NCBI RefSeq assembly: GCF_017348835.2
Contig: NZ_CP071375.1
Origin: Escherichia coli
GTDB lineage: Bacteria; Pseudomonadota; Gammaproteobacteria; Enterobacterales; Enterobacteriaceae
Direction: 5' to 3' (one strand)
DNA: 64,000 bases
The notes under the pieces were generated by a model, which worked only from the letters and a program-made list of their open reading frames with translations, did not search any database and was not told where the DNA came from. This document shows, piece by piece, positions 4,592 to 63,708 of this stretch; positions within the stretch are counted from its first letter, which is position 1; each line of letters starts with the position of its first letter. A program made the position numbers and the translations under genes.

Positions 4592-4610
4592 ACCAGCCAC
4601 GGAGTGTTAT

Positions 4611-6614: not shown

Positions 6615-6618
6615 TGGT

Positions 6619-6705
6619 GATCGCCGGACGCTGATCGCCGGATGCTGATTGCCGGATGCGACGCTGACGCGTCTTATCCGGCCTACAGCGTCTTATCCGG
6701 TCTAC
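6619..6705. repeat. REP/BIME-type extragenic palindromes, preceded by three tandem 14-bp units GATYGCCGGAYGCK
   Basis: Read directly: GATCGCCGGACGCT GATCGCCGGATGCT GATTGCCGGATGCG, then GCCGGATGCGACGCTGACGCGTCTTATCCGGCCTAC and a second CGTCTTATCCGGTCTAC. Confidence 0.8.
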
Positions 6706-6723
6706 ATGTCCCCGCTATTTTGT

Positions 6724-7767: not shown

Positions 7768-7892
7768 GGACGGTACGACCCCAGAAGTTCAAACAAACAG
7801 CACAAGTCGTATCTTCGTTGCGCAGGTAGCGCGGCTCAATCGGATTTGTCGGATTGAGCCAACAATAAACAACGAAATATTATTGTTATTTT

Positions 7893-8468
7893 TCAGTCCA
7901 TTAAATGTGACGTTTGCAAATAGTTAAGCAATAACACCGTCTTACCGTCACGTATCTCGCCGGTTTTGATCATCTCCAGCGCCTGGCTGAACGGCAGCTC
8001 GAGCACTTCAATATCTTCATCTTCGACACCGCCACCGGCGTTAGCGCGCTGATTGTCACTGTATTCGGCGATAAAAAAGTGGATTAGCTCAGTCACACCG
8101 CCTGGCGACATATACAGTTCAAATAATTTGCGCACTTCACCCACTTCATAGCCCGTCTCTTCAATCGCTTCTTTGCGAATGCACACTTCCGGTTCGTCGT
8201 TATCCAGCAGCCCGGCGCAGGTTTCAATCAGCTGCCCGCTTTCATTGCCATTAACCCAGGTAGCGACACGGAACTGACGAATCAGAACCACGGTCTTTTT
8301 CTTCGCGTTGTACAGGAGGATCGTCGCACCATTACCGCGATCGTAAACTTCACGTTTATGGCGGATAACTTCGCCATCTTTGCGCGTGAGATCGTAAGTA
8401 ATGTTGTGCAGGGTGAAATAGTTATCGGAGAGAATTTTGTCTTTAATGAGGGTGATTTGTTGCGTCAT
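7893..8468 (-). CDS. nudK: GDP-mannose pyrophosphatase (Nudix hydrolase)
   Basis: The track ORF is trimmed to [18 protein letters not shown]... (191 aa). A Nudix box is present ([22 protein letters not shown]). Confidence 0.93.
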
Positions 8469-8535
8469 ACCGACTCCACAGCGCGAAATGAACAATTATC
8501 TTACGCTGTGAAGTCGGGTTTGTCTGCGCAGGCTA

Positions 8536-10515
8536 TCAGTGAGATTTGACTGATTTTACCCCCAGCCAGTCAATAATCCCCTGTGCCGCATGACGTCCTT
8601 CTGCCATTGCGGTAACCACCAGATCCGCACCACGCACGGCGTCACCACCAGCGAAGATTTTCGGATTGGTGGTCTGGTAACGGTACTGGCTTTCCACATC
8701 CGCGATGATGCGGCCCCATTTGTCTACCGTTACACCGTGCGACTCCAGCCACGGCATCCCATGCGGATTGAAGCCAAACGCCATAATCACCGCGTCGGCT
8801 GGCATGACAAATTCACTGCCTTCCACCGGTACTGGACGCCGACGCCCCTGGGCATCCGGCTCGCCAAGACGCGTGCGCAGGAAACGAATCCCGCAGACGT
8901 GACCTTGTTCATTCAGCTCAAGCGCCACCGGCTGGACGTTAAATTCGAAGTTGGCCCCCTCTTCGCGGGCGTTCTTCACCTCTTTCTTCGAGCCTGGCAT
9001 GTTAGCTTCATCACGACGATAAGCGCAGGTGACGTTACTCGCGCCGTGGCGCAGCGCAGTACGCACACAGTCCATCGCGGTGTCGCCGCCGCCCAGTACC
9101 ACGACGTTGAGTCCGGCGGTATTGATAAACGGCTCTTCCGGTAGCTCTTCGAGCCCCATCACCTGTTTAGTGTTGGCGATGAGGAACGGCAGCGCGTCAT
9201 AAACGCCCGGCGCATCTTCATTGGGTAAACCCGCTTTCATGGAACGGTAAGTGCCTACGCCAACGAAGACCGCGTCGTATTGTTCCAAAAGCGAATCCAA
9301 AGAGACATCTTTACCCACTTCACAATTGAGTTCGAAGTGAATCCCCATCGCGCTGAAGATTTCCCGACGACGTGCCAGCAGGGATTTATCCAGTTTGAAA
9401 GAAGGAATGCCGAAAGTGAGCAAGCCACCGATTTCTGGATGGCGATCGTACACCGTCACCGCCACGCCATTGCGGGTCAGAACATCCGCACAGGCCAGCC
9501 CTGCCGGACCTGCACCGATAATCGCCACCCGCTTGTCCACTTTGGTGACATGGCTTAAGTCAGGACGCCAACCTTTCGCCAACGCCTGATCTGAAATGTA
9601 GCGTTCAATGTTGCCGATAGTTACCGCACCGTGCTCATCGCGAATAGTACAGGCACCTTCACACAAACGGTCTTGCGGACAAACGCGTCCGGTAATTTCC
9701 GGCAGGGTGTTGGTCAGGTGAGAAAGCTCGACGGCGGCGTCGATGTTTCCGGCTTTCACCAGTTCAATCCACTGCGGTATATGGTTATGCAGCGGGCAGG
9801 TCCATTCACAAACGCTGTGCTCGCCGCATTTAAGGCAGCGCGAGGCTTCCCGTTGTGCCTGATCGGCACGGAATGGCAGATAAATTTCATCAAAACCGGT
9901 TTTGCGCGCTTCAATCGCCAGTTTATCCGGCTCGCCACGCGCGGGCGTTGCCTGCATTTGCTCGACTTTACTCATTACCGGCATTTCTTGCGCCGCGGTA
10001 CTGGCATGCCACGGTTGATGTTCCTGACGTGCGGTACGCAAGCGACGGGATTTCGCCATGCCTGAGAGTGCGGCGTCAGTGACCAGCTGCAGCGCGTCCG
10101 CCGGGCAATTCTCGACACAGGCAGGACCGTTTTCGCGCCCTGCACAAAGGTCGCATTTATGCGCCGTGGCTTTAACTTTGCCCGCTGCGACGGGTGTCAG
10201 GACGATTTGCATCGTACCAAACGGACAGGCCACCACGCAGGATTTACAGCCAATACACTTTTGCTGATTGACCTGAATGCTGTCATCAACGTGGCTGATT
10301 GCGCCATTAGGGCAGCTACGGGCGCAGGGCGCATCTTCACAATGGTGACAGGTCACTGCACTACGTTGCTGCTGATGTTTGATAACCGTAATTCGGGGAT
10401 GAAAATGATGTTGGCTCAGGACATGTTGCTCATCATTGTGAGCCATGACACAAGCGATTTCACAAGCATGACAACCCAGACATTGCTGACTGTTGGCCAT
10501 AATAAAACGATTCAT
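8536..10515 (-). CDS. aegA: Putative Fe-S / FAD-NAD(P)-binding oxidoreductase AegA (4Fe-4S ferredoxin N-domain plus GltD-like domain)
   Basis: 659-aa ORF with multiple CxxCxxCxxxC clusters and a GAGPAG dinucleotide-binding motif, in K-12 synteny. Confidence 0.93.
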   Translation of the reverse strand: MNRFIMANSQQCLGCHACEIACVMAHNDEQHVLSQHHFHPRITVIKHQQQRSAVTCHHCEDAPCARSCPNGAISHVDDSIQVNQQKCIGCKSCVVACPFGTMQIVLTPVAAGKVKATAHKCDLCAGRENGPACVENCPADALQLVTDAALSGMAKSRRLRTARQEHQPWHASTAAQEMPVMSKVEQMQATPARGEPDKLAIEARKTGFDEIYLPFRADQAQREASRCLKCGEHSVCEWTCPLHNHIPQWIELVKAGNIDAAVELSHLTNTLPEITGRVCPQDRLCEGACTIRDEHGAVTIGNIERYISDQALAKGWRPDLSHVTKVDKRVAIIGAGPAGLACADVLTRNGVAVTVYDRHPEIGGLLTFGIPSFKLDKSLLARRREIFSAMGIHFELNCEVGKDVSLDSLLEQYDAVFVGVGTYRSMKAGLPNEDAPGVYDALPFLIANTKQVMGLEELPEEPFINTAGLNVVVLGGGDTAMDCVRTALRHGASNVTCAYRRDEANMPGSKKEVKNAREEGANFEFNVQPVALELNEQGHVCGIRFLRTRLGEPDAQGRRRPVPVEGSEFVMPADAVIMAFGFNPHGMPWLESHGVTVDKWGRIIADVESQYRYQTTNPKIFAGGDAVRGADLVVTAMAEGRHAAQGIIDWLGVKSVKSH

Positions 10516-10720
10516 AACGACCTTCTTTTTTGGTTGTAAAAACCTTATTCTTTATATGAGTGTTGTTATTACCCGACTTACAGGGGAATCGGCAATGTTC
10601 ATGTGCCCAGAATAAGTAACTATTTCGCTATAAACTGTGGCAGATCAAATAATCCCATCACTGACTAAATTGCGTTTCAGCGAACTGGAACATTAATGAT
10701 TTTTTGTGGAGAAGACGCGT

Positions 10721-12421
10721 GTGATTGTTAAACGACCCGTCTCGGCCAGTCTGGCCCGGGCCTTTTTTTACATTGTGCTGCTGTCGATTCTTTCCACGGG
10801 TATCGCTCTGCTAACTCTGGCGAGCAGTTTGCGCGACGCTGAGGCTATCAATATTGCCGGATCGCTGCGTATGCAGAGTTACCGCCTGGGCTACGACTTG
10901 CAAAGTGGCAGTCCACAACTCAATGCACATCGCCAGTTATTTCAGCAGGCACTGCATTCACCGGTATTAACCAACCTCAACGTCTGGTATGTGCCAGAAG
11001 CAGTAAAAACTCGCTATGCGCATCTGAATGCAAACTGGCTGGAGATGAATAATCGGCTCAGCAAGGGCGATTTGCCGTGGTATCAGGCCAATATTAATAA
11101 TTATGTTAATCAGATAGACCTGTTCGTGCTGGCTTTACAGCACTACGCTGAACGCAAAATGCTGCTGGTGGTGGCGATTTCCCTGGCTGGCGGTATCGGT
11201 ATTTTCACGCTGGTCTTTTTTACTTTGCGCCGCATACGCCATCAGGTGGTTGCCCCGCTGAATCAGCTGGTTACCGCCAGTCAGCGTATTGAACACGGAC
11301 AGTTCGACTCGCCGCCGCTGGATACCAGTCTGCCGAATGAGCTTGGTCTGCTTGCAAAAACCTTTAACCAGATGTCGAGCGAGCTGCATAAATTGTACCT
11401 TTCGCTGGAGGCGTCAGTAGAAGAAAAGACCCGCGATCTCCACGAGGCCAAGCGTCGTCTGGAGGTGTTGTATCAGTGTTCGCAGGCGCTGAACACCAGC
11501 CAGATTGATGTGCATTGTTTCCGCCATATTTTGCAGATTGTTCGCGACAATGAAGCGGCTGAATATCTGGAGCTGAACGTTGGGGATAACTGGCGGATTA
11601 GCGAAGGGCAACCAAACCCGGAATTGCCGATGCAGATTTTACCGGTGACAATGCAAGAGACGGTTTACGGCGAACTGCACTGGCAAAATAGTCACGTTTC
11701 ATCATCAGAACCGCTGCTTAACAGCGTTTCGTCGATGCTGGGACGCGGTTTGTACTTTAATCAGGCGCAGAAGCATTTTCAGCAGTTATTGTTGATGGAA
11801 GAACGTGCGACCATCGCCCGCGAATTGCACGACTCGCTGGCTCAGGTGCTTTCTTACTTACGTATCCAGTTGACGTTACTTAAGCGTTCGATACCGGAAG
11901 ATAACGCCACCGCACAAAGTATCATGGCCGATTTTTCCCAGGCGTTGAATGATGCTTATCGGCAGTTACGCGAGCTGTTGACTACTTTCCGCCTGACGCT
12001 GCAGCAGGCGGATCTCCCCTCCGCGTTGAGGGAAATGCTGGATACGTTACAAAATCAAACCAGCGCCAAACTGACCCTCGACTGCCGTCTGCCAACCCTG
12101 GCACTGGATGCGCAAATGCAGGTGCATTTGTTGCAAATTATTCGCGAAGCGGTGCTGAATGCGATGAAGCACGCCAACGCCAGCGAAATCGCCGTCAGTT
12201 GCGTCACCGCGCCGGACGGCAATCACACGGTTTATATCCGTGATAACGGGATTGGTATCGGTGAACCGAAAGAGCCCGAAGGTCATTATGGACTGAATAT
12301 CATGCGCGAACGCGCGGAACGGCTGGGCGGGACGCTGACTTTTTCACAACCTTCCGGCGGCGGCACGTTAGTGAGTATTAGCTTTCGCTCCGCGGAGGGT
12401 GAGGAAAGTCAGCTGATGTAA
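10721..12421 (+). CDS. narQ: Nitrate/nitrite sensor histidine kinase NarQ
   Basis: The track ORF 10706..12421 is placed at the GTG at 10721 (MIVKRPVSASLARAFF...) to give 566 aa. It has an H-box (ELHDSLAQ) and a HATPase C-terminus. Confidence 0.93.
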   Translation: MIVKRPVSASLARAFFYIVLLSILSTGIALLTLASSLRDAEAINIAGSLRMQSYRLGYDLQSGSPQLNAHRQLFQQALHSPVLTNLNVWYVPEAVKTRYAHLNANWLEMNNRLSKGDLPWYQANINNYVNQIDLFVLALQHYAERKMLLVVAISLAGGIGIFTLVFFTLRRIRHQVVAPLNQLVTASQRIEHGQFDSPPLDTSLPNELGLLAKTFNQMSSELHKLYLSLEASVEEKTRDLHEAKRRLEVLYQCSQALNTSQIDVHCFRHILQIVRDNEAAEYLELNVGDNWRISEGQPNPELPMQILPVTMQETVYGELHWQNSHVSSSEPLLNSVSSMLGRGLYFNQAQKHFQQLLLMEERATIARELHDSLAQVLSYLRIQLTLLKRSIPEDNATAQSIMADFSQALNDAYRQLRELLTTFRLTLQQADLPSALREMLDTLQNQTSAKLTLDCRLPTLALDAQMQVHLLQIIREAVLNAMKHANASEIAVSCVTAPDGNHTVYIRDNGIGIGEPKEPEGHYGLNIMRERAERLGGTLTFSQPSGGGTLVSISFRSAEGEESQLM

Positions 12422-12584
12422 TGCCTCCTACTGACCAAAGAATACTTGCACTTAAGGTTCAGTATAAAAGGGCATGATAATTTACATTAACTCCTTTTTT
12501 TCTCCACGATTGGCTCGTACCTTGCCGCTACAGTGAAGCAAGTCAAGCCTACAACGATACGCAGAAACACGAGGTCCTCTTTTA

Positions 12585-15500
12585 ATGGCGAATTTCTTTA
12601 TTGATCGCCCCATTTTTGCCTGGGTGCTGGCAATCCTGTTGTGTCTGACAGGTACCCTGGCGATTTTTTCATTGCCCGTTGAACAATACCCCGATCTCGC
12701 GCCACCGAATGTGCGAGTGACCGCTAACTATCCCGGCGCATCGGCCCAGACGCTGGAAAACACCGTGACCCAGGTTATCGAGCAAAATATGACCGGCCTC
12801 GATAATCTCATGTATATGTCATCTCAGAGCAGTGGCACCGGTCAGGCATCTGTCACTTTAAGTTTTAAAGCAGGCACCGATCCGGACGAAGCCGTGCAGC
12901 AAGTACAAAACCAGCTGCAATCAGCCATGCGAAAGTTACCGCAGGCGGTGCAAAATCAGGGCGTGACGGTGCGTAAAACCGGCGATACCAATATTCTGAC
13001 CATTGCTTTCGTCTCTACCGATGGTTCGATGGATAAACAGGATATTGCTGATTATGTTGCCAGTAATATTCAGGATCCGTTAAGCCGCGTGAATGGCGTC
13101 GGGGATATCGATGCCTATGGTTCGCAATATTCCATGCGTATCTGGCTGGACCCGGCGAAACTCAACAGTTTCCAGATGACAGCTAAAGATGTCACTGATG
13201 CCATTGAGTCACAGAACGCGCAGATTGCGGTTGGGCAACTTGGGGGTACACCTTCCGTCGATAAGCAGGCGCTCAACGCCACCATTAACGCCCAGTCACT
13301 GCTGCAAACACCAGAACAGTTCCGCGATATCACCTTGCGGGTGAATCAGGACGGCTCAGAAGTAAGGCTGGGCGATGTCGCCACCGTCGAAATGGGGGCG
13401 GAGAAATACGATTATCTTAGCCGCTTCAATGGTAAGCCAGCCTCCGGGTTGGGGGTAAAACTGGCCTCCGGCGCAAACGAAATGGCGACAGCGGAGCTGG
13501 TGCTCAATCGTCTCAACGAGCTGGCGCAGTATTTCCCGCATGGACTGGAATACAAGGTGGCGTATGAAACCACCTCGTTTGTTAAAGCCTCCATTGAAGA
13601 CGTGGTGAAAACGCTGCTGGAAGCTATCGCTCTGGTTTTCCTCGTTATGTATCTGTTCCTGCAAAACTTCCGCGCCACGCTGATACCCACTATCGCCGTG
13701 CCGGTGGTGTTGATGGGAACCTTCTCCGTACTTTACGCCTTCGGTTACAGCGTCAACACCTTAACCATGTTCGCGATGGTGCTGGCGATCGGTCTGCTGG
13801 TGGATGACGCCATCGTGGTGGTGGAAAACGTCGAACGTATTATGAGTGAGGAAGGACTCACTCCTCGCGAAGCCACACGTAAATCGATGGGGCAGATCCA
13901 GGGGGCACTGGTCGGGATTGCGATGGTGCTTTCGGCGGTATTTGTACCAATGGCCTTCTTCGGCGGCACCACCGGTGCCATCTATCGCCAGTTCTCTATT
14001 ACCATTGTTGCGGCGATGGTGCTGTCAGTACTGGTAGCGATGATCCTCACTCCGGCTCTGTGTGCCACGCTACTTAAGCCACTGAAAAAAGGTGAGCATC
14101 ACGGGCAAAAAGGCTTTTTTGCCTGGTTTAACCAGATGTTTAACCGCAACGCCGAACGCTACGAAAAAGGGGTGGCGAAAATTCTCCACCGTAGCCTGCG
14201 CTGGATTGTGATTTATGTCCTGCTGCTTGGCGGCATGGTGTTCCTGTTCCTGCGTTTGCCGACGTCGTTCTTACCGCTGGAAGACCGGGGCATGTTTACT
14301 ACCTCGGTACAATTGCCCAGCGGTTCAACCCAACAACAGACCCTGAAAGTCGTTGAGCAAATCGAGAAATATTACTTCACCCATGAAAAAGACAACATCA
14401 TGTCGGTGTTTGCCACCGTTGGCTCTGGCCCTGGGGGCAACGGGCAAAACGTGGCGCGAATGTTTATCCGCCTGAAAGACTGGAGCGAACGCGACAGTAA
14501 GACCGGCACCTCATTTGCCATTATCGAGCGTGCAACGAAGGCGTTTAACAAGATTAAAGAAGCTCGCGTTATCGCCAGCAGCCCGCCAGCAATTAGCGGT
14601 CTTGGTAGTTCTGCGGGTTTTGATATGGAGTTGCAGGACCACGCTGGAGCAGGTCACGATGCGCTGATGGCAGCACGTAACCAGTTGCTGGCGCTGGCGG
14701 CGGAAAACCCGGAGCTAACCCGTGTGCGCCATAACGGCCTCGATGACAGTCCGCAGTTGCAGATTGATATCGACCAGCGTAAAGCTCAGGCGCTGGGCGT
14801 TGCTATCGACGATATTAACGACACACTGCAAACCGCCTGGGGTTCGAGCTATGTGAATGACTTTATGGATCGCGGTCGCGTGAAGAAAGTCTATGTGCAG
14901 GCAGCTGCGCCGTATCGCATGCTGCCAGATGACATCAATCTCTGGTATGTCCGAAATAAAGATGGCGGCATGGTGCCCTTCTCTGCTTTCGCGACCTCAC
15001 GCTGGGAGACAGGCTCGCCGCGTCTGGAACGCTATAACGGTTATTCTGCGGTTGAGATTGTTGGGGAAGCCGCACCGGGGGTCAGTACCGGTACGGCGAT
15101 GGATATTATGGAATCGTTAGTGAAGCAGTTGCCAAACGGCTTTGGTCTGGAGTGGACGGCGATGTCGTATCAGGAGCGGCTTTCCGGCGCGCAGGCTCCG
15201 GCGCTGTACGCTATTTCCTTGCTGGTGGTATTCCTGTGTCTGGCTGCATTGTATGAAAGCTGGTCGGTACCGTTCTCGGTAATGCTGGTCGTGCCGCTGG
15301 GGGTTATCGGCGCGCTGCTGGCAACCTGGATGCGGGGGCTGGAAAACGACGTTTACTTCCAGGTGGGCCTGTTAACGGTCATTGGTTTATCGGCGAAAAA
15401 CGCCATCCTGATCGTCGAGTTTGCTAACGAGATGAACCAAAAAGGCCACGACCTGTTTGAAGCGACGCTCCACGCCTGCCGTCAGCGTTTACGCCCGATT

Positions 15501-15698
15501 CTGATGACCTCGCTGGCATTTATCTTCGGCGTATTGCCAATGGCAACCAGCACGGGTGCCGGTTCCGGTGGTCAGCATGCGGTGGGTACTGGCGTAATGG
15601 GCGGGATGATTTCAGCTACTATTCTGGCTATTTACTTCGTGCCGCTGTTCTTTGTGCTGGTGCGCCGCCGCTTCCCGCTGAAGCCGCGCCCGGAATAA
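12585..15698 (+). CDS. acrD: RND-family aminoglycoside/multidrug efflux pump AcrD
   Basis: 1037-aa ORF with a typical AcrB/AcrD sequence ([21 protein letters not shown]...), in K-12 synteny. Confidence 0.96.
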
Positions 15699-15709
15699 GC
15701 AATAAAAAA

Positions 15710-15736
15710 GGCGACATGCCAATGTGTCGCCTTTTT
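15710..15736 (+). terminator. Rho-independent terminator of acrD
   Basis: GGCGACA / TGTCGCC stem with an 8-nt loop followed by TTTTT, 12 nt after the acrD stop. Confidence 0.8.
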
Positions 15737-15796
15737 CAACTTTCCGATTAAGAACTTGCTCAGCAGGTTCTTGCTGTTTGTACTTTGTCTCAGGAA

Positions 15797-15856
15797 TTAC
15801 TTACGAAGCATAACTTCAATAAAGTCTTTCCAGTTCCCCAGTTCACGTTCAATCAT
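15797..15856 (-). CDS. ypfM: Small stress-induced protein YpfM (19 aa)
   Basis: The reverse strand reads ATG ATT GAA CGT GAA CTG GGG AAC TGG AAA GAC TTT ATT GAA GTT ATG CTT CGT AAG TAA = MIERELGNWKDFIEVMLRK. This matches my recollection of K-12 YpfM, and it is too short for the ORF track. Confidence 0.6.
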   Translation of the reverse strand: MIERELGNWKDFIEVMLRK

Positions 15857-16218
15857 AACAACCTCTCTTATAATTATGGGTATTCTACGGAAACAATATA
15901 CCGTGGTGAAGCTAATTTACTCGATTGCTGCGATGACTACCTCCGGGGGACAAACCTTATGTAAATACTATGGTCCTGCGGTGATGATTTGTATGTGATA
16001 CACAGCAACATTTCGAGATATTCATACGGCATCTAATACTGATTTAATTCTGGTTAAAATACAGACAGATAACAAGATGAATATTCTTAATGTTTACGTT
16101 AAAAATGTTTAATATTATTTAATAGTTGTTAATTTGAATACTTCGATAATGTTATATTTCCTGATAATCATTTGCAGGCAAAATGTTTTCACCCTTAAAT
16201 GAGTATTTATTCTCATAA

Positions 16219-51721: not shown

Positions 51722-53965
51722 TCAGGCACTTTCGCGAATGGGTTCGATTTCATTCAGCGTATCAATTAACGGTTGCGGCTTACCAATAAGATAACCCTGC
51801 ATATAATCGATCCCCAAAGAGAGCACTGCCTCGCGGATCTCTTCGTTTTCAACGTACTCTGCCACTACCAGCATTTTCTTCATTCGCGCCAGGTGGCAAA
51901 TCGATGCCACTATCTGATAATCCAGACTATTTGACACAATATTGCGGATAAAACTGCCGTCAATTTTAAGCAGATCGGCATTCACATTTTTAAGCCGCGC
52001 ATAGCTGGCGTAGCCGGTGCCGAAATCATCAATCGCAATCTGGCAGCCTAATTCCTGAAGATGCTGCAAGGTGATTTGCGCCTGCTTAACATTGGTCAGA
52101 GCATTACTTTCGGTGACTTCAAAAATAAGTTGCCACGCTTCAATCTGATATTTAGCCAGCAACTGACTGACTTCAACAGGAAAACGAGCCTGACATACCG
52201 AGGTTGGAGACAGATTAATAGCAAAACGGTGAGCGGGCATCTTCGCTCTGTTTTCAGCCATAAATTGCAGCGTATGCTCAATGACCCACATGTCGATACT
52301 CGACGATAAACCAAATTCGTGCGCGACCGGCAAGAAGCTATCGGGGCTGATCAGTTCATCATTCTCACCTTTCATGCGCAGAAGAATTTCATGGTAAACA
52401 TCACCACGCATACCGGTAATTGGCTGGGCCATCAGGAAAAAATGGTTGTGTTCCAGCGCCTGCTGTAGTCGATTCATCATCGCGACTTTATCTTTCAATT
52501 CGCGTTGCAAATACATTGCCCCGCGACGCTGCATATTTTCCGGGGCGTTGGTCACGATGGAAAGTTCGGCGACCGTATTTAGCTCTCCCAGCAGCAGGTA
52601 GATATAATTCACTGGCGAGCGCACATAGCAGTAACTGACGCCAATCTGCGGTTGCATCGGCATGCCATCCCAAAAGAAACGAAATTGCTTGAGATGGCTA
52701 TCCAGTGCGGTAATGCGCTCCTGGTGCGATTCTGTATTCAGTCGCAGCGCGAGATCGTTACCCGAAAGCTGATAAACATCTTCACCCGGTTCCAGCAATG
52801 GTGACAGCCAGTGAGAAAGTTTTTGCTTGTATTGAATCCGCAGCATGATGCCATAGTTTTTAACCAGCATTTCCATGCCAGGGATGCGTAAATAACAAAG
52901 CGCAGACCAGGGGGCATCACGCAACGCGCGATTCAGGGCGCGAACATTTGGCAGATGAACCACCGGGTCCACATACGCAAGCCGCTGAATGCGTCTGACT
53001 ACCGTTCTCTGACGGGTTGCCAGTACAGCCATATAATTGACAATAAAAGAGAATACCAGATAACTGGAGGAGGTTATGGTCAGCTGCGTGGTATAGCCGG
53101 GATAAATGGGAATGTAATTTTGATAGCTGTGGATGCTGATCATCAACACGACCGCCCAGAGCAGTGAAATCAGCTTATAACCATAGCGCATCGCTCCCCA
53201 CATCATCAGGGGCAGCAATAATGACAAGGTATAATTGGTGCTAAAAATTGTGCTTTTTTCATTTAACGGCATGCATAACAGCAACAGTAAAGCACCTAAT
53301 GCCAGTAGCCAGAGTGCGAACTCTTTTTTGGTGACTTTGACATCAACCTGCTGTTTTAATTGCGAATAATAACTACGTAAATAAAACGGATTTCGAACTA
53401 CCCGAATGATGAAGTAGCACAGCGGGACACCAATCAGATTGCCCACCAGTAAGGCCTGATAATTGATTAAAGTCCCGAGGTTAAAAGGCATGACACCGAC
53501 CAGATTTTCTCTGCTCGCCAGTAATCCTACAAATGCAGCAAACTGGAAAAGTATCAGAAACAGCGTTGCAGGAAACACAATCTGCCAGAATATACGCTGG
53601 GAAATTAAACGGGTATCACCATGTGAAACGTTGTTACGCCGGGGAGTAAAGACCCTGTAACCGCCCCAACAGAGAATGATAATGATGATAAAATTAGCCG
53701 TTAATGAGAGCGTTTCGTAAAAACCCAGCTCTGCATATTTGCGGACAAAAATCCCTAAGGCGATCCCTGGCAATGCCGCCCAGCTGAAAAACATCATCAT
53801 GCTGATCATCAGTGCCAAAGGCAGATAAAAGAGAAAAACCTCACCGGAAGAAATATGCGCGAAAGTATTAATGTGGGCGAAAATAGGCAAGATTAAAGAA
53901 GGCAGGAACAGCGGAAGCCCCCACCATTTATCACGTATTTTTATATAAGTTGCATTCAGTTTCAT
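51722..53965 (-). CDS. pdeF: c-di-GMP phosphodiesterase PdeF/YfgF (MASE1 membrane domain, degenerate GGDEF, EAL)
   Basis: 747-aa ORF with an N-terminal polytopic region and a C-terminal EAL domain (EVTES...DDFGTGYAS), at the K-12 position. Confidence 0.93.
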   Translation of the reverse strand: MKLNATYIKIRDKWWGLPLFLPSLILPIFAHINTFAHISSGEVFLFYLPLALMISMMMFFSWAALPGIALGIFVRKYAELGFYETLSLTANFIIIIILCWGGYRVFTPRRNNVSHGDTRLISQRIFWQIVFPATLFLILFQFAAFVGLLASRENLVGVMPFNLGTLINYQALLVGNLIGVPLCYFIIRVVRNPFYLRSYYSQLKQQVDVKVTKKEFALWLLALGALLLLLCMPLNEKSTIFSTNYTLSLLLPLMMWGAMRYGYKLISLLWAVVLMISIHSYQNYIPIYPGYTTQLTITSSSYLVFSFIVNYMAVLATRQRTVVRRIQRLAYVDPVVHLPNVRALNRALRDAPWSALCYLRIPGMEMLVKNYGIMLRIQYKQKLSHWLSPLLEPGEDVYQLSGNDLALRLNTESHQERITALDSHLKQFRFFWDGMPMQPQIGVSYCYVRSPVNYIYLLLGELNTVAELSIVTNAPENMQRRGAMYLQRELKDKVAMMNRLQQALEHNHFFLMAQPITGMRGDVYHEILLRMKGENDELISPDSFLPVAHEFGLSSSIDMWVIEHTLQFMAENRAKMPAHRFAINLSPTSVCQARFPVEVSQLLAKYQIEAWQLIFEVTESNALTNVKQAQITLQHLQELGCQIAIDDFGTGYASYARLKNVNADLLKIDGSFIRNIVSNSLDYQIVASICHLARMKKMLVVAEYVENEEIREAVLSLGIDYMQGYLIGKPQPLIDTLNEIEPIRESA

Positions 53966-54508: not shown

Positions 54509-54601
54509 CGGTTACCTTCTCCACTTTCACAGAACATAACGGCACTTTGAACCGCCCCGGAAATCCTGGAGACTAAACTCCCTGAGAAAGAGGTAAACAG
54601 G

Positions 54602-54928
54602 ATGACTAAAAATACTCGTTTTTCCCCCGAAGTCCGTCAGCGGGCGATTCGTATGGTTCTGGAAAGTCAGGATGAATATGACTCACAGTGGGCGGCAATT
54701 TGTTCCATTGCCCCAAAGATTGGCTGTACGCCGGAGACTCTGCGTGTCTGGGTTCGCCAGCATGAGCGGGATACCGGGAGTGGTGATGGTGGACTCACCA
54801 CCGCTGAACGTCAGCGTCTGAAAGAGCTGGAACGTGAAAATCGTGAACTGCGCCGCAGTAACGATATCCTTCGCCAGGCTTCCGCTTATTTTGCGAAGGC
54901 GGAGTTCGACCGCCTCTGGAAAAAATAA
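54602..54928 (+). CDS. IS3-family transposase OrfA (HTH/leucine-zipper)
   Basis: 108-aa [26 protein letters not shown]... ending at an A6 run followed by TAA. Confidence 0.95.
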
Positions 54929-55815
54929 TGCCACTGCTGGATAAGCTGCGTGAGCAGTACGGGGTCGGACCGGTATGCAGCGAACTGCATATTGCCCCGT
55001 CAACGTATTACCATTGTCAGCAACAGCGACATCATCCGGATAAACGCAGTGCCCGTGCGCAGCACGATGACTGGCTGAAGAAAGAGATACAGCGCGTATA
55101 CGATGAAAATCACCAGGTATACGGTGTGCGTAAAGTCTGGCGTCAGTTGTTACGGGAAGGTATCAGAGTGGCCAGATGCACTGTGGCACGTCTCATGGCA
55201 GTTATGGGACTTGCCGGTGTTCTCCGGGGTAAAAAGGTCCGCACTACCGTCAGCCGGAAAGCCGTTGCCGCATGCGACCGCGTAAACCGTCAGTTCGTGG
55301 CAGAACGTCCAGACCAGTTGTGGGTGGCTGATTTTACCTGGGTAAGCACATGGCAGGGCTTCGTTTATGTGGCGTTCATCATTGATGTGTTCGCCGGATA
55401 CATCGTGGGATGGCAGGTCTCATCATCCATGGAAACAACATTCGTGCTGGATGCACTGGAGCAGGCGTTGTGGGCCCGTCGGCCGTCCGGCACAATCCAT
55501 CACAGTGATAAAGGTTCTCAGTATGTATCGCTGGCCTACACGCAGCGGCTTAAGGAAGCCGGATTACTGGCATCAACAGGGAGTACTGGCGACTCGTATG
55601 ACAACGCGATGGCTGAGAGCATCAATGGTCTTTACAAAGCGGAGGTAATACACCGTAAGAGCTGGAAAAACCGGACAGAAGTGGAACTGGCCACACTAAC
55701 GTGGGTGGACTGGTATAACAATCGACGATTGCTGGAAAGGCTGGGCCATATTCCTCCGGCAGAAGCAGAAAAAGCTTATTATGCTTCCATCGGAAATAAT
55801 GATCTGGCAGCCTGA
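54928..55815 (+). CDS. IS3-family transposase OrfB (DDE catalytic domain), in the -1 frame relative to OrfA
   Basis: 295-aa ORF with DDE residues in WVADFT, HHSDKGSQY and NAMAESIN. The -1 frame is open from 54862, so an OrfAB fusion by programmed frameshifting at the A6 run is possible. Confidence 0.95.
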   Translation: MPLLDKLREQYGVGPVCSELHIAPSTYYHCQQQRHHPDKRSARAQHDDWLKKEIQRVYDENHQVYGVRKVWRQLLREGIRVARCTVARLMAVMGLAGVLRGKKVRTTVSRKAVAACDRVNRQFVAERPDQLWVADFTWVSTWQGFVYVAFIIDVFAGYIVGWQVSSSMETTFVLDALEQALWARRPSGTIHHSDKGSQYVSLAYTQRLKEAGLLASTGSTGDSYDNAMAESINGLYKAEVIHRKSWKNRTEVELATLTWVDWYNNRRLLERLGHIPPAEAEKAYYASIGNNDLAA

Positions 55816-55857
55816 GTTCACAGATAAAACACTCTCCAGGAAACCCGGGGCGGTTCA

Positions 55858-55964
55858 AACTCGTACAGTGGCGTACCACTGGGGTCCATTCCTTCAAGTC
55901 TCAGGGAAGCCTCTGCTTTGCGGAAGCCCTCAATGCGTAACCGTGTATAGGGAGTCCTAGACAT
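55858..55964 (-). pseudogene. 5' fragment (35 codons) of a VbhA-like (Fic-associated) antitoxin gene, cut by the IS
   Basis: The reverse strand reads AAGGAAAAAC ATG TCT AGG ... = MSRTPYTRLRIEGFRKAEASLRLEGMDPSGTPLYE, running straight into the IS right end. The A.ASLRLEG..PS motif is typical of VbhA-family antitoxins. Confidence 0.55.
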
Positions 55965-56045
55965 GTTTTTCCTTTGAGTTGCAGGAGTGAGGTTCGCTCA
56001 GTGAAAGCGTCAGCTCACGCAACCTCGTTAACTGACGCGCGTGAT

Positions 56046-57446
56046 TCAAGATTTATTATTACCCGATAAGCTATCACCGGCAAAATCATCATGTTCGCGG
56101 TTATCCCGACGAGTAGCTGTTTGTTTACTTATCTGAGTCGCCAACTCCTCTCCAATAGTTTGTTGGGCACGAGAAGAACTGCTACTTCGCTTCATTCTCT
56201 GGTACTCAGCAGCTCCGTTAGCCATGCTGCTTCCCATATGGCTTGCCATGCGGCCAGCACGCGAGAATGAAGCAAACCCCTGACTTCCTCCACTGGCGCT
56301 ACCTGAACTGCTCCCTGCAGACGAACCACTGTAACCGCCTGAGGTTTGGCCTCCAGAAGTATCTACAGAACCGGTATCTTCCCCGCCGCCAAATCCTCCA
56401 CCGGAACCGCCTCCGCTGCCTGAACCAGATTCTTCGTCCATGGCAGCTTGCGCAGACTCGAATGCTGCCTTTAATGCTGAAGCTCCGCCGCTGACTTGAG
56501 CTGATGCCCCCATTGCCATTGCTCCAGCACCGCTGATGGCAGTAGCGGCTGCGCCGGTAATCATACCCGCCCCAAATCCACCAATCCCTTGTAAAGAAGC
56601 CCCTCCTACAACACCTGATAACAACAGTGGTAGCTTATTAGTTAATACTAACAGGATAATTGACGCCAGAAGCAAAACTATAAGACTATTAAGATCAGGA
56701 ACATCATCTTTAATAAGAGAAAAATATTGATCTATAAATGATTGTCCAATCCCAATAATTAATGTCATCGTGAATAATTGAATGCCAATCGATAAAACAG
56801 TTCGTAAGTAATTAATTGCTATATCAGAGGTCCATTTCGAACCACCAAACCCAAGCAATATAACTCCTGCATAACATAACACCCATGCAGAAACCAACAT
56901 GATTAGCATATTTATCGCTATAAGGGACATCACTACCAAAACGATTATCGCGACTGTTATCATAATGGTGGATATCATTGGCGACCAAATTGATGCGGCT
57001 GAACTGATCTTGGTTAATATCGCAAACGCCATATCAACTATGCTTGAGGGAGAAATACCAATACTTATTTCTAAAGCGTTTGCTGCAAGTTGTCTCATTG
57101 AATTAATTATGGATTGCGATATGGATGGACCGTTGATTAAAAGATAATAAAAAAAACCAATGACGGCAAAAAAGCGAACTATTTCAGCAAGTACCCCTGT
57201 CAACCCTTCCCCTTGCATCGCCATCATACCAAATGTCCAAACCATACTTATTAATACCAGCCCCCAGAAGAGCCAATTTGCATAGTCAGCAATTACTGCT
57301 GTCCATGTACTGGCTACTTGTTGAAACTTATCTAATAAAGTATCAAGTAGCCCGCTACTATCTAATTGACCAGCATAGGCATTAATAGAAAAGAAAAGTA
57401 TGATACCTAAAAAGGTGAGCTTACTTACTATTTTCATGATTACCAT
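56046..57446 (-). CDS. trbL: TrbL/VirB6-family type IV secretion membrane protein with a Gly/Ser-rich C-terminal tail
   Basis: 466-aa ORF with a signal peptide, multiple TM segments and trbJ-trbK-trbL synteny. The low-complexity tail reads GSGSGGGSGGGFGGGEDTGS.... Confidence 0.8.
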   Translation of the reverse strand: MVIMKIVSKLTFLGIILFFSINAYAGQLDSSGLLDTLLDKFQQVASTWTAVIADYANWLFWGLVLISMVWTFGMMAMQGEGLTGVLAEIVRFFAVIGFFYYLLINGPSISQSIINSMRQLAANALEISIGISPSSIVDMAFAILTKISSAASIWSPMISTIMITVAIIVLVVMSLIAINMLIMLVSAWVLCYAGVILLGFGGSKWTSDIAINYLRTVLSIGIQLFTMTLIIGIGQSFIDQYFSLIKDDVPDLNSLIVLLLASIILLVLTNKLPLLLSGVVGGASLQGIGGFGAGMITGAAATAISGAGAMAMGASAQVSGGASALKAAFESAQAAMDEESGSGSGGGSGGGFGGGEDTGSVDTSGGQTSGGYSGSSAGSSSGSASGGSQGFASFSRAGRMASHMGSSMANGAAEYQRMKRSSSSSRAQQTIGEELATQISKQTATRRDNREHDDFAGDSLSGNNKS

Positions 57447-57624: not shown

Positions 57625-58419
57625 TCACCAAATTCGCTTCGGGCTTGGTGTATTCTCTCCAGCTAACGCTTTTTCATCAGCGGCTATCTGTTGTGATTCT
57701 TTATCTGCCTGAGCCTGTGCCAGTGTTGCTGCAGCGTTTTGTTGGGCTACCAGAAGTGAGCGGATTTGCAGTAACTGATTTGTCTGTGCACTGGCAAGCT
57801 GGTTTGCCGCCTGAATAGCTTCCATTTGCCCTTGTGCGCCGCTTGCCTGAGTTTGTAATTCGGCAAGATTATCAGCATCGCTCTGCAGGGTGTTCTGCTG
57901 CTCGTCAATTACCTTAAATACTGCGTCATTGGCCTTTTTACGCGCCCCTGAGCTATTCTGTTCAGCTTCACGCAGTGCACTAATTTCAGACGCGGTACAT
58001 TCAACATTGCTGTTAAAGCAAGACGATGTCCTGTAGTAGTTAACATCCTGATAGCGTTTCAGGTACGCATCGAGACTCCCGGCCTGATTCTTGTAGTAAT
58101 TAAGGGTATCCTGCACCTGCAACAATTTATTAATTGTTGAATTTGCCTGGTCCCAGATATAGGCCGCAGGAGCTACGGTGTTCTGCAGCATGTTTTCATA
58201 CTGCTGCAGCTGCGTCTGGTACTGCTGGATTTGTTTAGTCACAGCCTGAACGTTGTTAACTGCGCTGATTGTGGTCTGAACCACATTAGTGCCATCAATA
58301 ACGGGAATTCCGGCCTTCACCGGTAATGCCATGACGGACGCCACGAAAGGAACTATTAAAGCTTTTTTAGCGGCTAAAATCCCTCTTTGTGATGAAACCA
58401 CTCGGAACTTTAAATTCAT
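57625..58419 (-). CDS. trbJ: TrbJ/VirB5-family type IV secretion protein
   Basis: 264-aa ORF with a strong RBS (AAGAGGTGA), a signal peptide and the coiled-coil-rich Q/N-rich sequence typical of P-type TrbJ. Confidence 0.8.
   Translation of the reverse strand: MNLKFRVVSSQRGILAAKKALIVPFVASVMALPVKAGIPVIDGTNVVQTTISAVNNVQAVTKQIQQYQTQLQQYENMLQNTVAPAAYIWDQANSTINKLLQVQDTLNYYKNQAGSLDAYLKRYQDVNYYRTSSCFNSNVECTASEISALREAEQNSSGARKKANDAVFKVIDEQQNTLQSDADNLAELQTQASGAQGQMEAIQAANQLASAQTNQLLQIRSLLVAQQNAAATLAQAQADKESQQIAADEKALAGENTPSPKRIW
58366..58378. promoter_or_regulatory. KorB-operator-like palindrome TTTAGCGGCTAAA inside the 5' end of trbJ
   Basis: An exact 13-mer matching the IncP O_B consensus TTTAGCSGCTAAA lies 41-53 nt downstream of the trbJ ATG. 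Confidence 0.6.
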
Positions 58420-58868: not shown

Positions 58869-58984
58869 GGCGGTAGCCTGGCAGCCTCGCAGAGCAGGAC
58901 GCCCTTGAGCCGCGATGCGGCGAATAGGGAGTGGTAAAGTTGGAACACCGTAGCGGTGGGCCCACTTTACATGTCCTGCCCTGC
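58869..58984 (+). other. IncP-type origin of transfer (oriT); predicted nick between 58978 and 58979 on the + strand
   Basis: The sequence is colinear with the RP4/RK2 oriT as I recall it. It shares an identical 18-mer CAGCCTCGCAGAGCAGGA (58882-58899), GCGAATAGGGA, GGAACACC, the hairpin CACCG-TAG-CGGTG, GGTGGGCC and the nick core GTCCTG/CCC (RP4 ATCCTG/CCC). Its position upstream of traJ is the same as in RP4. Confidence 0.8.
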
Positions 58985-59246: not shown

Positions 59247-59271
59247 GCAGATTTTAGCGGCTAAAATCTGC
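59247..59271. promoter_or_regulatory. KorB-operator-like site embedded in a 25-bp perfect palindrome GCAGATTTTAGC-G-GCTAAAATCTGC
   Basis: Read directly. The core TTTAGCGGCTAAA is at 59253-59265, in the non-coding region between oriT and the iterons. Confidence 0.65.
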
Positions 59272-61151: not shown

Positions 61152-61382
61152 TTACCTACCTAAAACAATACCGGGTCTGGCTGCTTTAAACATTGCTGAT
61201 TTACGATCCGCAATCCACTGTTCCACTTCGGATAACTGCCATGCAACATTTCGGCTCGTAAGTGCTATACGGCGAGGAAACTCGCCTCGCTGTTCAAGGT
61301 TATAAATAGTGCGGGCTGACAATGGGATCATTTCCAGAAGTGTTTTTCTGTTAATGAGCGTGCTATGTGCCTTTGTTTGCAT
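61152..61382 (-). CDS. alpA: AlpA-family (MerR-type HTH_17) regulator/excisionase
   Basis: The track ORF 61152..61403 is placed at an ATG at 61382 preceded by GGAGGAAGG, giving MQTKAHSTLINRKTLLEMIPLSARTIYNLEQRGEFPRRI.... This is the typical AlpA/Xis motif, located 5 nt upstream of repA. Confidence 0.8.
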   Translation of the reverse strand: MQTKAHSTLINRKTLLEMIPLSARTIYNLEQRGEFPRRIALTSRNVAWQLSEVEQWIADRKSAMFKAARPGIVLGR

Positions 61383-61459
61383 CTGCCTTCCTCCTGTTTC
61401 CAATCAGGCCTATACAATGCCAAGCATTACCACTTGCTAAAACCTATTCATTGGCTAAA

Positions 61460-62431
61460 ATGGTTGACATGAAAATTACTATCTGGGAAGGCTGTGACCT
61501 CACAGTTGCAGCTGCAATTAAATTATTTGTAGAGCGTAGTTCTCCGTACTCCATATTTTCACGGAGGTATCCAATACTGCGTCTCATACAGGAAGTTATT
61601 GATCCAGCAGTAGCTGATTATGTAAATTCCCTGCCACCAAGTCATAAAGACTACATTTCTGGAGTAAATCTAGGATTTAGTGAAGTACTTAAAAAATTGG
61701 GTTTAAACGTCGTAGTACAGGCACAAAGACTTCTTTTGCGTAATTTCGTTCTGACTTTAGATCAACAAACTTCTCTTGATAAATGCTTTACCGCTACGAT
61801 TGAGTCTCTTATTGAATTAGTCAGTGAATGCGCATCCAAGCGGCCGAAGAAATCCTCTCCTGCAAAAGGAGTAACTATAAATTCACAGCGTAAGCTCGGT
61901 TATTGCGAGTTCTGCGGTAATCTAACCGAATTTTCCAAGTTGATCAGTGAGATATCAGAATTTGTTGCTAACGATAATGAGTTCCCCGTTCATGAAAAAC
62001 AGGTCCTTAGTCATCGATATTGTTCTGACCATAGGCCCAAACTCACCAATGGTCTATGGAATCCCAAATACAGACAAGGAAAGCGGTCTCTCGAACAGTT
62101 CAATAAAGAATTAATAAGGCTTAGACGGCAATGCGCTAAACCTCATAAAGCTAACGCAAACACAGGGGATATATTGATTGATACATATTTTCATGAGTGG
62201 ATGCAGGGTCAAACTTTAACCCCAGCAGATCTAGATAAACTTAGGAATATCGCCAGACGAATGGTTGACTCCAAATTCACTGATACTAAGAAAAAAATAA
62301 TCATATTAAAACACCAAGGTTTTAACCAGTTTGAAACCGCACAGGTTTTAGAAAAAAATCACTACACAACTATGACAAAGCAGGCTGTGTCCAAGGCCTT
62401 AGCGTCTGTGAGGAAAGAATTTTATATTTAA
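61460..62431 (+). CDS. Hypothetical protein with a CxxC...CxxH motif and a C-terminal HTH-like (sigma70 region 4/LuxR-like) segment; divergent from alpA
   Basis: The long track ORF 61367..62431 has its first 31 codons overlapping alpA, so I place the start at 61460 or 61469. No good RBS is visible and the start is uncertain. Motifs are GYCEFCG...YCSDH and ...ILKHQGFNQFETAQVLEKNHYTTMTKQAVSKALASVRKEF. Confidence 0.55.
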   Translation: MVDMKITIWEGCDLTVAAAIKLFVERSSPYSIFSRRYPILRLIQEVIDPAVADYVNSLPPSHKDYISGVNLGFSEVLKKLGLNVVVQAQRLLLRNFVLTLDQQTSLDKCFTATIESLIELVSECASKRPKKSSPAKGVTINSQRKLGYCEFCGNLTEFSKLISEISEFVANDNEFPVHEKQVLSHRYCSDHRPKLTNGLWNPKYRQGKRSLEQFNKELIRLRRQCAKPHKANANTGDILIDTYFHEWMQGQTLTPADLDKLRNIARRMVDSKFTDTKKKIIILKHQGFNQFETAQVLEKNHYTTMTKQAVSKALASVRKEFYI

Positions 62432-62853
62432 AATAGTATATCCACGAGCTATTATGGTGGCAGTTTAAGTCTTAATACCATCCACTTTATTGAATTATAA
62501 CCAGCCACTTACGAAGGTTTTTCGCGATTACCCTGCTTCAAATTGATGATTTTGAAAATACAGTATTATAGTTTATTGTTTGTAGCGCAGCTGTAAGCGT
62601 TATGCAAAATGGATCACAGTGATACGACCTCACCAGTAAATCACTGAAGCCGATCTGTAATGACATAGAACGAATTGGTTTTATGGTTATGCAATGGCTC
62701 ATCCCCTTACTTGTCCCTGACCATAAAAAGCATTCGCTTTCCTGAAAGCAAGTCTAAGCCAAGGGGCGTTTACAGTTGTCTTATCTTGACTCATTAGGTA
62801 CTGGCTTAATGATTAGAATCATGTCGGTGGCATTTAGGTCCAAATATGCCCAA

Positions 62854-62872
62854 AATTTTAGCAGCTAAAATT
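62854..62872. promoter_or_regulatory. KorB-operator-like palindrome, variant centre (AATTTTAGC-A-GCTAAAATT)
   Basis: A 9-1-9 perfect palindrome is read directly with core TTTAGCAGCTAAA at 62857-62869, in a non-coding gap. Confidence 0.55.
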
Positions 62873-63008: not shown

Positions 63009-63638
63009 TTAAACCATGGTCTGTTCAGCGTTAAATTTCTCAAGATAGACTTCCATTTCGCGAGTCCACCTAGGGGTAGGTACCGAGGTGATCATTAGCC
63101 AAGGAAACCACCATACAAGCATGAAGAGTAACATAAGCGGTGCGATCATTTCGGCCGAAGAATGAGAAACTATATACATAATGAATAATATTAGTAGAAC
63201 TGTGTTTACAATCTGACCTACCAGAAAAAGACGCCAGCGAAAACAATGCCATTTCCTGTTGAACACAATCCGTCCATCCCGTTCTTCGAGCCAGTTACGC
63301 CACGGCTTGAGATAACCAGCCCGCAACCCATAACGATCACACATTATTACAGCCAAATCCTGCAGCCGATAATTATACAAGCCTGTGAGCCGATAAAGGC
63401 TGCGCTGACGAAGCTCACGCTTTGCCAGACGGACCGCATTTTTATTCAAATATGGCTGTGTCAGCATTTGCTCTAGCCGGCGCTTCCTAAGATTGAGTAG
63501 TCCACGAAATACACTTCCAGATTCAGCATTAATTACTCTGTGACGAACTACACCGAGTGCAATATAGATACACAGCAATAGCCAGCCGGTCTTAGGGTAT
63601 TGATTCATCCATTGTATAATTACAGACAACTCAGGCAC
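63009..63638 (-). CDS. Hypothetical membrane protein (one N-terminal and two C-terminal TM helices, basic central domain), GTG start
   Basis: 209-aa track ORF with hydrophobic segments TGWLLLCIYIALGVV, LFLVGQIVNTVLLILFIMYIV and MIAPLMLLFMLVWWFPWLMI. I recognise no family. Confidence 0.6.
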   Translation of the reverse strand: MPELSVIIQWMNQYPKTGWLLLCIYIALGVVRHRVINAESGSVFRGLLNLRKRRLEQMLTQPYLNKNAVRLAKRELRQRSLYRLTGLYNYRLQDLAVIMCDRYGLRAGYLKPWRNWLEERDGRIVFNRKWHCFRWRLFLVGQIVNTVLLILFIMYIVSHSSAEMIAPLMLLFMLVWWFPWLMITSVPTPRWTREMEVYLEKFNAEQTMV

Positions 63639-63689: not shown

Positions 63690-63708
63690 AATTTTAGCGG
63701 CTAAAATT
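63690..63708. promoter_or_regulatory. KorB-operator-like palindrome AATTTTAGC-G-GCTAAAATT upstream of the membrane-protein gene
   Basis: A 9-1-9 perfect palindrome has its core TTTAGCGGCTAAA at 63693-63705. It lies 52-70 nt upstream of the GTG at 63638 and 54 nt downstream of the int stop. Confidence 0.65.

Follow-up and report, generated by a model that had tools for sequence, protein, structure and literature searches.

The divergent 'LuxR-type' gene of a PIME1 element at guaA in Escherichia coli: a candidate positive regulator of the alpA-rep operon

PIMEs are integrative mobilizable elements that carry int, alpA, a replicase gene, trbJ, and trbL, are mostly inserted at guaA, and depend on IncP helper plasmids (Perta et al., bioRxiv 10.64898/2026.01.12.698999). 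The PIME1 subfamily is distinguished by "two divergently oriented transcriptional regulators", encoded by alpA and by a luxR-family gene (bioRxiv 10.64898/2026.01.12.698999, January 2026). Excision is induced by the IncP plasmids pB10 and pKJK5 but not by IncN, IncX, or IncL/M plasmids, and no spontaneous excision was seen without a helper (bioRxiv 10.64898/2026.01.12.698999). Deletion of luxR in the M. morganii element PIME1-MmNCTC12028 abolished excision, circularisation, replication, and transfer with the IncP helper pB10, and complementation in trans restored transfer in part (same preprint). Here, we report the analysis of an open reading frame (ORF) located at positions 61367 to 62431 of a 64,000-nucleotide stretch of E. 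coli DNA, referred to as the window (contig NZ_CP071375.1, assembly GCF_017348835.2), and conclude that the gene is the PIME1 'luxR' regulator of a mobilizable element at the 3' end of guaA.

About 1,000 PIMEs are known in Pseudomonadota. They carry defence systems and resistance genes, include GIsul2 as a relative, and are mobile only with an IncP plasmid; the regulator gene is one of three genes required for the helper-triggered switch. The gene and its genetic role have already been described (bioRxiv 10.64898/2026.01.12.698999). The analysis adds mechanistic leads, namely a GTTGAC candidate operator that co-varies with the recognition helix, a KorB operator at the regulator stop codon, and natural fusions to the N-terminal domain of TrbB. 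We hold it moderately probable that the regulator is a positive transcription factor of the element.

The regulator gene and its place in the element

The following features define the locus.

61469-62431, plus strand: coding sequence of the PIME1 'LuxR-type' regulator, 320 residues from ATG 61469.
61152-61382, minus strand: alpA (Phage_AlpA helix-turn-helix), first gene of a divergent operon comprising alpA, repA, and an ORF of 257 codons.
61383-61459, no strand: control region separating the divergent alpA and regulator genes, 77 bp (86 bp if counted from ATG 61469), containing TATACAATGCCAAGCATTACC, a conserved block, and the Shine-Dalgarno sequence of alpA.

As is the case for the PIME1 'luxR' gene of the preprint, the window gene lies between alpA and int and diverges from alpA in an island at guaA. 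The two islands share the core set int, alpA, repA, traJ, trbJ, and trbL, and the two genes have the same public annotation. The window locus is 100% identical to that of E. coli PE164, which reads ppk-ppx-pdeF-yfgG-IS3, then trbL, trbJ, traJ, a hypothetical gene, repA, and alpA, then the regulator gene, a hypothetical gene, and int, followed by guaA. The G+C content of the island is 38-43%, versus about 50% for the flanking chromosome. The presence of a PIME1 element has also been reported in P. rettgeri (bioRxiv 10.64898/2026.01.12.698999). A Providencia rettgeri member of the family is 45% identical to the window protein over its full length, and may or may not correspond to the tested allele.

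The copy present in the window is not complete. The intact element of E. coli RM10042, located between yfgI and guaA, is about 22 kb long and resembles in this the E. coli element PIME1-EcRHB23-C07 of the preprint (22.2 kb). In the window, IS3 has replaced yfgH, yfgI, and the accessory half of the island (54600-56050, compared with positions 1-16055 of the RM10042 locus L074). In RM10042, this half harbors ABC-3C defence genes, Fic/DOC, and HigA. Because of this truncation, the far attachment site should be missing; the window regulator is intact, but the island is probably no longer able to excise normally. In the identical strain PE164, pdeF (51722-53965, minus strand) is annotated as a pseudogene with an internal stop.

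The maximal ORF (61367-62431, plus strand) comprises 354 codons and starts with GTG. The RefSeq coding sequence starts at ATG 61460, encodes 323 residues, and is annotated as "LuxR family transcriptional regulator" or "hypothetical protein". ATG 61460 is replaced by ATA in four related loci (L024, L036-38) and partly overlaps the predicted -10 hexamer described below. ATG 61469 is kept in nearly all related loci and is a GTG in one of them. Judging from these alignments, the true start is ATG 61469 or ATG 61460, not GTG 61367. An earlier note, made from the sequence of the window, had described the 5' region of the gene as overlapping the start of alpA. Since alpA starts at 61382, this overlap is an artefact of the maximal GTG ORF, and the two genes are separated by the 77-bp (or 86-bp) region. 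The remainder of that description stands: alpA and the regulator gene are divergent, and trbL, trbJ, traJ, the 257-codon ORF, repA, alpA, a 209-codon ORF, and int, i.e., every other gene of the island, are located on the minus strand. Residues are numbered from ATG 61460 throughout.

The context of the gene was surveyed in 72 loci from species-representative genomes. In all 72, the regulator gene heads a rightward unit diverging from an operon that consists of alpA or a gene for a small helix-turn-helix protein, followed by repA and repC. Two arrangements were found. In the first, seen in most loci and in the window, trbL-trbJ-traJ...repC-repA-alpA is followed by the 77-bp spacer, the regulator gene, and a convergent int. 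In the second, seen in about 14 loci including those of Xanthomonas (L015, L016, L018, L021-23, L026, L028, L030, L032, L045, L056, L058, and L069), repC, repA, and the small helix-turn-helix gene diverge from the regulator gene and alpA, which are followed by int and guaA. The small gene, of 78-84 codons and unlike alpA, leads the repA-repC operon, and alpA lies downstream of the regulator gene on the same strand (for example, L023, 7632-9316). About 86-90 nucleotides separate the divergent start codons in both arrangements. The 77-bp spacer is ungapped and of the same length even between loci that share only about 50% protein identity. The neighbourhood comparison proposed in the earlier note thus revealed a conserved layout, with divergence from the rep operon in both arrangements. 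Its suggestion that the gene encodes a regulator specific to the island and linked with the alpA/rep module is supported by this fixed divergent position and by the phenotype of the luxR deletion in the preprint.

Homologues of the protein numbered 373 in a search of 5.8 billion proteins. A profile search of 1.84 billion cluster representatives gave 298 clusters (50% identity) spread across Pseudomonadota, with E <= 1e-30 for 120 clusters. Comparison with alleles about 75% identical gave a ratio of nonsynonymous to synonymous substitution rates (dN/dS) of 0.16-0.20 at a dS of about 0.8-0.9, and the frame has remained open despite saturated synonymous sites. By this measure, the ORF is a real gene under purifying selection, and the codon-level conservation that the earlier note had asked about is present. 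The exact window protein is a RefSeq "MULTISPECIES [Enterobacteriaceae]" entry found on 279 contigs. The gene was detected in 33 of 5,426 complete E. coli genomes and was chromosomal every time; a plasmid origin was rejected, as a homologue was found in only 1 of 72,556 plasmid records.

Three further observations concern the evolution of the gene. In mosaic alleles (L007, L008, and L010; 61460-62431 compared with P0004-type alleles), identity to a sister allele is 97-100% over alpA, the intergenic region, and the first 146 codons, and only 64-84% over the remainder of the regulator gene. The fall in identity after codon 146 places a recombination breakpoint near the first cysteine pair of the protein. 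Decayed copies were found in Serratia (L009, 8001-8030), with a stop at codon 9 and loss of repA and the trb genes, and in Phytobacter (L006, 8001-8837), in which the regulator gene is frameshifted.

Promoter, candidate operator, and protein architecture

Two features immediately precede the start codon.

61434-61461, plus strand: predicted sigma-70-type promoter of the regulator gene, with -35 TTGCTA (61434-61439), a 16-nucleotide spacer, and -10 TAAAAT (61456-61461); it contains GCTAAAAT.
61462-61468, plus strand: GGTTGAC box between the -10 hexamer and the start ATG, a candidate operator, nearly invariant and present once per element.

A promoter scan of the window also called the site at 61434-61461, and 34 distinct upstream regions, drawn from every subfamily, share the consensus cTTGatt-N16-tAaAAT-gGTTGAC-ATG. 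The earlier note had read GCTAAAAT (61454-61461) as a half-site of the palindromes considered below. The sequence is indeed present. The -10 hexamer varies among loci (TAAAAT, CATAAT, GATAAT, AATAAT, TATTAT, TACATT) with conservation of A2 and T6 and variation at the "GC" positions, which is the behaviour of the -10 element of a conserved promoter rather than that of a KorB half-site. The -10 hexamer ends exactly 7 nucleotides before ATG 61469, and no Shine-Dalgarno sequence is present; the regulator mRNA is thus probably leaderless and starts at A61469. The clade formed by L033, L034, and L041 has a short leader with AAGAGG instead, and the out-of-frame position of GGTTGAC in these three loci indicates that the box is conserved as DNA rather than as codons.

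The recognition helix of the protein, x(R/K)QAVSKAL, is almost invariant across loci, and the residue preceding its invariant glutamine varies with the box as follows.

Arginine or lysine: box GTTGAC, in about 52 loci.
Proline: box GTTGTT, in L012-14.
Asparagine: box GTTGGAT, in L059-66.

L027, a sister of L012-14 with an otherwise identical promoter, combines arginine with GTTGAC. This covariation makes the GTTGAC box a likely operator, and its pattern is that expected for direct readout by the helix-turn-helix of the regulator.

The alpA side of the 77-bp region has no recognisable -35 hexamer. Three other elements were considered in this region and rejected. A sigma-54 promoter for alpA fits GG-N10-GC in the window, but the aligned loci have GG-N9-GC. 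TTGACA in the box is not followed by a conserved -10 that would make it the -35 of a downstream promoter. The direct repeat CACTTGCTAAAA / CATTGGCTAAAA merely corresponds to the -35 and -10 regions of the clade of the window and is not conserved.

In the AlphaFold2 model of the regulator (mean predicted local distance difference test score, pLDDT, 78.9), a helical N-terminal domain (residues 1-125) is followed by a low-confidence segment that includes the first cysteine pair (128-183), a long helix (202-226), and a confident C-terminal helical domain (258-316). The corresponding positions in the DNA are as follows.

61460-61834, plus strand: N-terminal all-helical domain, residues 1-125, with a conserved PYSxxSRRYPILRLIxEVIDP block and the invariant C12.
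61904-62032, plus strand: putative zinc module, C149-x2-C152, 35 variable residues, C188-x2-H191, with four invariant ligands and a spacer of low confidence in the model.
62231-62428, plus strand: C-terminal helical DNA-binding domain, residues 258-323, of the sigma-70 region 4 / GerE type, with the recognition helix TKQAVSKALASVRKEF.

C149, C152, C188, H191, C12, and the PYSxxSRRYP block do not vary among 98 homologues (49-86% identity). The CxxC...CxxH motif, previously recognised as GYCEFCG and YCSDH, is therefore present, with a gap of 33 residues between the two strings instead of the 34 first counted. The four ligands are retained in distant and TrbB-fused family members. The two Cys/His knuckles are the most conserved segments of the protein, and conservation is lowest in the 22 residues that separate them. 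Pfam Zn_ribbon_2 gave weak matches in 32 of the 98 homologues. The four residues may form a zinc module of two knuckles.

The C-terminal stretch is a helix-turn-helix of GerE-like helical fold in the model (pLDDT 90-95), and its structural matches are helix-turn-helix domains only, as had been anticipated. Sub-threshold matches among the 98 homologues scatter over GerE, Sigma70_r4, HTH_23, HTH_8, and others. GerE (Pfam PF00196) matched 14 of the 98 weakly (best E 9.2e-5), none above the Pfam threshold, and did not match the window protein. Scans of the protein against Pfam, NCBIfam, and PHROGs returned nothing significant, no PDB sequence scored below E 0.27 in a profile search, and Foldseek of the whole model against PDB and BFVD gave no match at E <= 0.001. 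No autoinducer-binding, receiver, or other known signal domain was found, the N-terminal 250 residues matching nothing. Sigma region 2 was not found either, and region-4 matches were weak and confined to some homologues. ParB/KorB and KORA (PF16509) domains were not found in the window protein with Pfam; KORA appeared at E 0.002-0.008 in two distant members, amid many generic helix-turn-helix matches. The transferred public label "LuxR family" therefore fits only the last 60 or so residues, about a fifth of the protein, at the level of the fold. The earlier note had recognised no family, which is right as regards about 80% of the protein and holds for Pfam and NCBIfam at their thresholds; the profile and structure searches (Pfam, NCBIfam, PDB, BFVD) also did not point to any well-known family unrelated to DNA binding.

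KorB operators and TrbB fusions

The palindrome TTTAGCSGCTAAA occurs in the island in three exact copies (58366-58378, 59253-59265, and 63693-63705) and in one copy with a single mismatch (62857-62869); outside the island, the 64-kb window contains only a two-mismatch match at 15386. These palindromes are identical to the KorB operator of RK2, TTTAGCGGCTAAA, flanks included. Two sites lie on the 3' side of the regulator gene.

62857-62869, no strand: KorB-operator-like palindrome TTTAGCAGCTAAA, one mismatch, 426 bp past the regulator stop codon.
63693-63705, no strand: exact KorB operator TTTAGCGGCTAAA, between the 209-codon ORF and int.

An exact operator is located between -4 and +25 nucleotides from the regulator stop codon in 25 of the surveyed loci, sometimes providing the TAG itself, and follows the next small gene (alpA in the second arrangement) in 15 more. 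In the clade of the window, the 209-codon ORF is inserted at the operator site, flanked by two copies. The palindrome is absent from nine loci (L027, L042, L043, L046-48, L051, L052, and L062), in which the recognition helix and the promoter box are unchanged. GIsul2 has a KorB operator at the start of trbJ but no regulator gene. The island lacks the KorA operator GTTTAGCTAAAC. The most economical reading of the palindromes is that the island uses the KorB protein of the helper, for partition/incompatibility or for signalling. Such use would parallel the hijacking of the IncC parABS system by SGI1 (PMC10954446), and it fits the lowered amplification of pB10 reported in the preprint (bioRxiv 10.64898/2026.01.12.698999).

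Several observations concern the region between the regulator gene and int. The 425 bp on the 3' side of the gene (62432-62856) contain no convincing ORF. The 209-residue product of the following ORF (63009-63638, minus strand) is a predicted membrane protein without a family match, cargo of the enterobacterial clade, with a KorB-operator copy on either side. An intrinsic terminator formed by the palindrome was rejected: the stem would be weak and AU-rich, the loop would have 3 nucleotides, and no terminator was predicted at this site. A promoter-like site with TG-TAAAAT (62883-62855, minus strand) overlaps the palindrome at 62857 and points to the 3' end of the regulator gene; as an antisense promoter it was rejected, since it is present in the window but not conserved in other loci or clades. 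Elsewhere in the island, an Rfam traJ-II RNA motif was found upstream of traJ (58883-58981, minus strand; 86.9 bits, E 2.8e-16).

An additional domain of about 100 residues is present in 18 of the 150 best cluster representatives (about 12%), and two further 90%-identity clusters, close kin of P0141, are fused in the same way. The domain matches positions 5-118, approximately, of TrbB, the ATPase of the P-type type IV secretion system (NCBIfam TIGR02782, E 1e-12 to 1e-16); genuine TrbB proteins are matched at E of about 1e-10. The fused representatives are P0141, P0152, P0166-70, P0176, P0179, P0182, P0184, P0193, P0203, P0214, P0219, P0245, P0256, and P0139, the TrbB-like domain of the last being N-terminal. 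Recurrence of the fusion suggests that the regulator family communicates with the secretion ATPase of the helper. Two fused genes, those for P0141 and P0271, have the standard layout alpA, regulator gene, int, guaA; the convergent stop codons lie 18 bp apart, with no operator between them. The TrbB-fused loci L075-L078, L080, and L081 have a PIME1 context, and no KorB operator adjoins the gene.

Proposed mechanism, alternatives, and comparison with known systems

The model that we favour, and hold to be probable by a modest measure, is that the PIME1 'LuxR-type' regulator is a positive transcription factor of the element at guaA. The regulator would be made from the conserved sigma-70 promoter, probably as a leaderless mRNA. 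Its helix-turn-helix would read the GTTGAC box, which overlaps its own -10/+1 region, and an upstream TTGGC repeat 13 bp away may take part. The bound regulator would limit its own synthesis and would activate the weak divergent alpA promoter; this proposal is based on the position of the box centre, which lies roughly 45-50 bp upstream of where alpA transcription could plausibly start, and on the lack of a -35 on the alpA side. Expression of the operon would provide AlpA for excision and RepA/RepC for replication. The IncP signal would probably arrive outside the helix-turn-helix, either by loading of KorB at the operator abutting the 3' end of the gene, or by protein contact with the helper ATPase TrbB, the latter route being proposed because about 12% of the family clusters carry the TrbB fusion.

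Several points weigh against this model. Activation of alpA is suggested only by position and by the deletion phenotype of a homologue, and the requirement for helper-induced excision, replication, and transfer is reported for the M. morganii element only. The covariation of the box with the helix involves two independent clades only, and the strict conservation of GGTTGAC could reflect selection of the start site of a leaderless mRNA. For alpA, a good promoter of the sigma-70 or sigma-54 type could not be defined in the 77 bp. The zinc region is modelled with low confidence at residues 128-145 and 165-183. A hidden TrbB-like domain was sought in the short form encoded by the window and rejected (hhalign probability 0.2%). 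Elements without any KorB operator still keep the regulator gene. KorB is known as a repressor and a partition protein, roles that do not by themselves account for induction.

A bolder version, which we regard as possible but unlikely, is that the regulator is itself the helper sensor. Translated from a leaderless mRNA, it would represent a new class of activator, zinc-containing and of the sigma-4 type, and would detect IncP plasmids by direct contact with plasmid proteins (TrbB, as the recurrent fusions suggest, or KorB clamps loaded at the operator abutting the gene) before firing the alpA-rep operon. If true, it would answer the question, left open by the preprint, of how PIMEs sense their helper (bioRxiv 10.64898/2026.01.12.698999).

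More doubtful is a factor directed at RNA polymerase, i.e., a mimic or appropriator of sigma region 4 that would use a zinc ribbon to redirect the polymerase to island promoters lacking a classical operator. The C-terminal domain fits sigma region 4 as well as GerE and ends just past the recognition helix, as sigma region 4 does, and the alpA side has no recognisable -35. There is a precedent in phage satellites, in which zinc-ribbon activators (P2 Ogr, P4 Delta) contact the polymerase. However, sigma region 2 is missing, and covariation of the helix with GTTGAC points to direct readout of DNA.

Also improbable, and ranked just below the polymerase-directed factor, is a maintenance repressor resembling cI, which would hold alpA off in the integrated state and would be translated, as lambda cI is, from a leaderless mRNA. 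The divergent overlapping promoters, the likely operator on the regulator's own -10/+1 region, and the leaderless layout all agree with it. Deletion of a repressor should however make excision constitutive, whereas excision and replication are lost in the reported deletion, with partial complementation in trans. Also against such a repressor is the absence of spontaneous excision without a helper, even though the regulator promoter looks constitutive.

We consider it quite improbable that the regulator reads the TTTAGCSGCTAAA palindromes itself, as a KorB mimic of the island, which the earlier note had envisaged. The recognition helix and the palindromes are both nearly invariant, and the palindrome is usually at most 25 nucleotides from the regulator stop codon. 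In contrast, the palindromes are those of RK2 with their flanks, and PIMEs depend on IncP helpers; GIsul2 has the site without the gene; the nine palindrome-less loci keep the helix and the box; and the regulator has no ParB/KorB or KorA domain. Finally, an ordinary LuxR-family regulator of the quorum-sensing or two-component type is very improbable in spite of the RefSeq name 'LuxR family transcriptional regulator' and the weak GerE matches in 14 of 98 homologues, since the window protein has no GerE match, no member exceeds the Pfam threshold, and autoinducer-binding and receiver domains are lacking in a protein whose N-terminal 250 residues match nothing.

The regulator and its element can be compared with five known systems. 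With respect to the PIME1 'luxR' gene of the preprint, the window element differs by its truncation by IS3 and by its allele, the one tested genetically being that of M. morganii; the preprint gives no domain architecture, zinc motif, promoter, KorB operators, or TrbB fusions for this gene, which are described here. Relative to the GerE/LuxR helix-turn-helix and sigma-70 region 4, the regulator falls below the Pfam thresholds, has a 6-residue insertion before the recognition helix in many members, and lacks an apparent fourth (dimerisation) helix as well as receiver, autoinducer, and sigma-2 domains. In the divergent switch of lambda cI and its promoter P_RM, the regulator mRNA is leaderless, and the PIME1 regulator gene likewise begins at, or directly beside, the predicted transcription start, within a compact control region between divergent genes; the genetics here point to an activator of excision, and there is no kinship of sequence or fold. 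The island shares exact O_B sites with the KorB/O_B system of IncP-1 (PMC11790492), one of them usually abutting the regulator gene, but encodes no KorB, has no O_A site, and its regulator is unrelated to KorB and KorA. Like PIME1, SGI1 is silent until a specific helper, IncC, is present, then excises and replicates, and it carries centromere/operator sites of its helper (PMC10954446). SGI1 hijacks the parABS system of the IncC helper, and its excision is triggered by AcaCD (PMC10954446). The trigger of SGI1 is a helper-encoded activator. IncP plasmids are known to encode only repressors (KorA, KorB, and TrbA), and PIME1 instead needs a regulator of its own.

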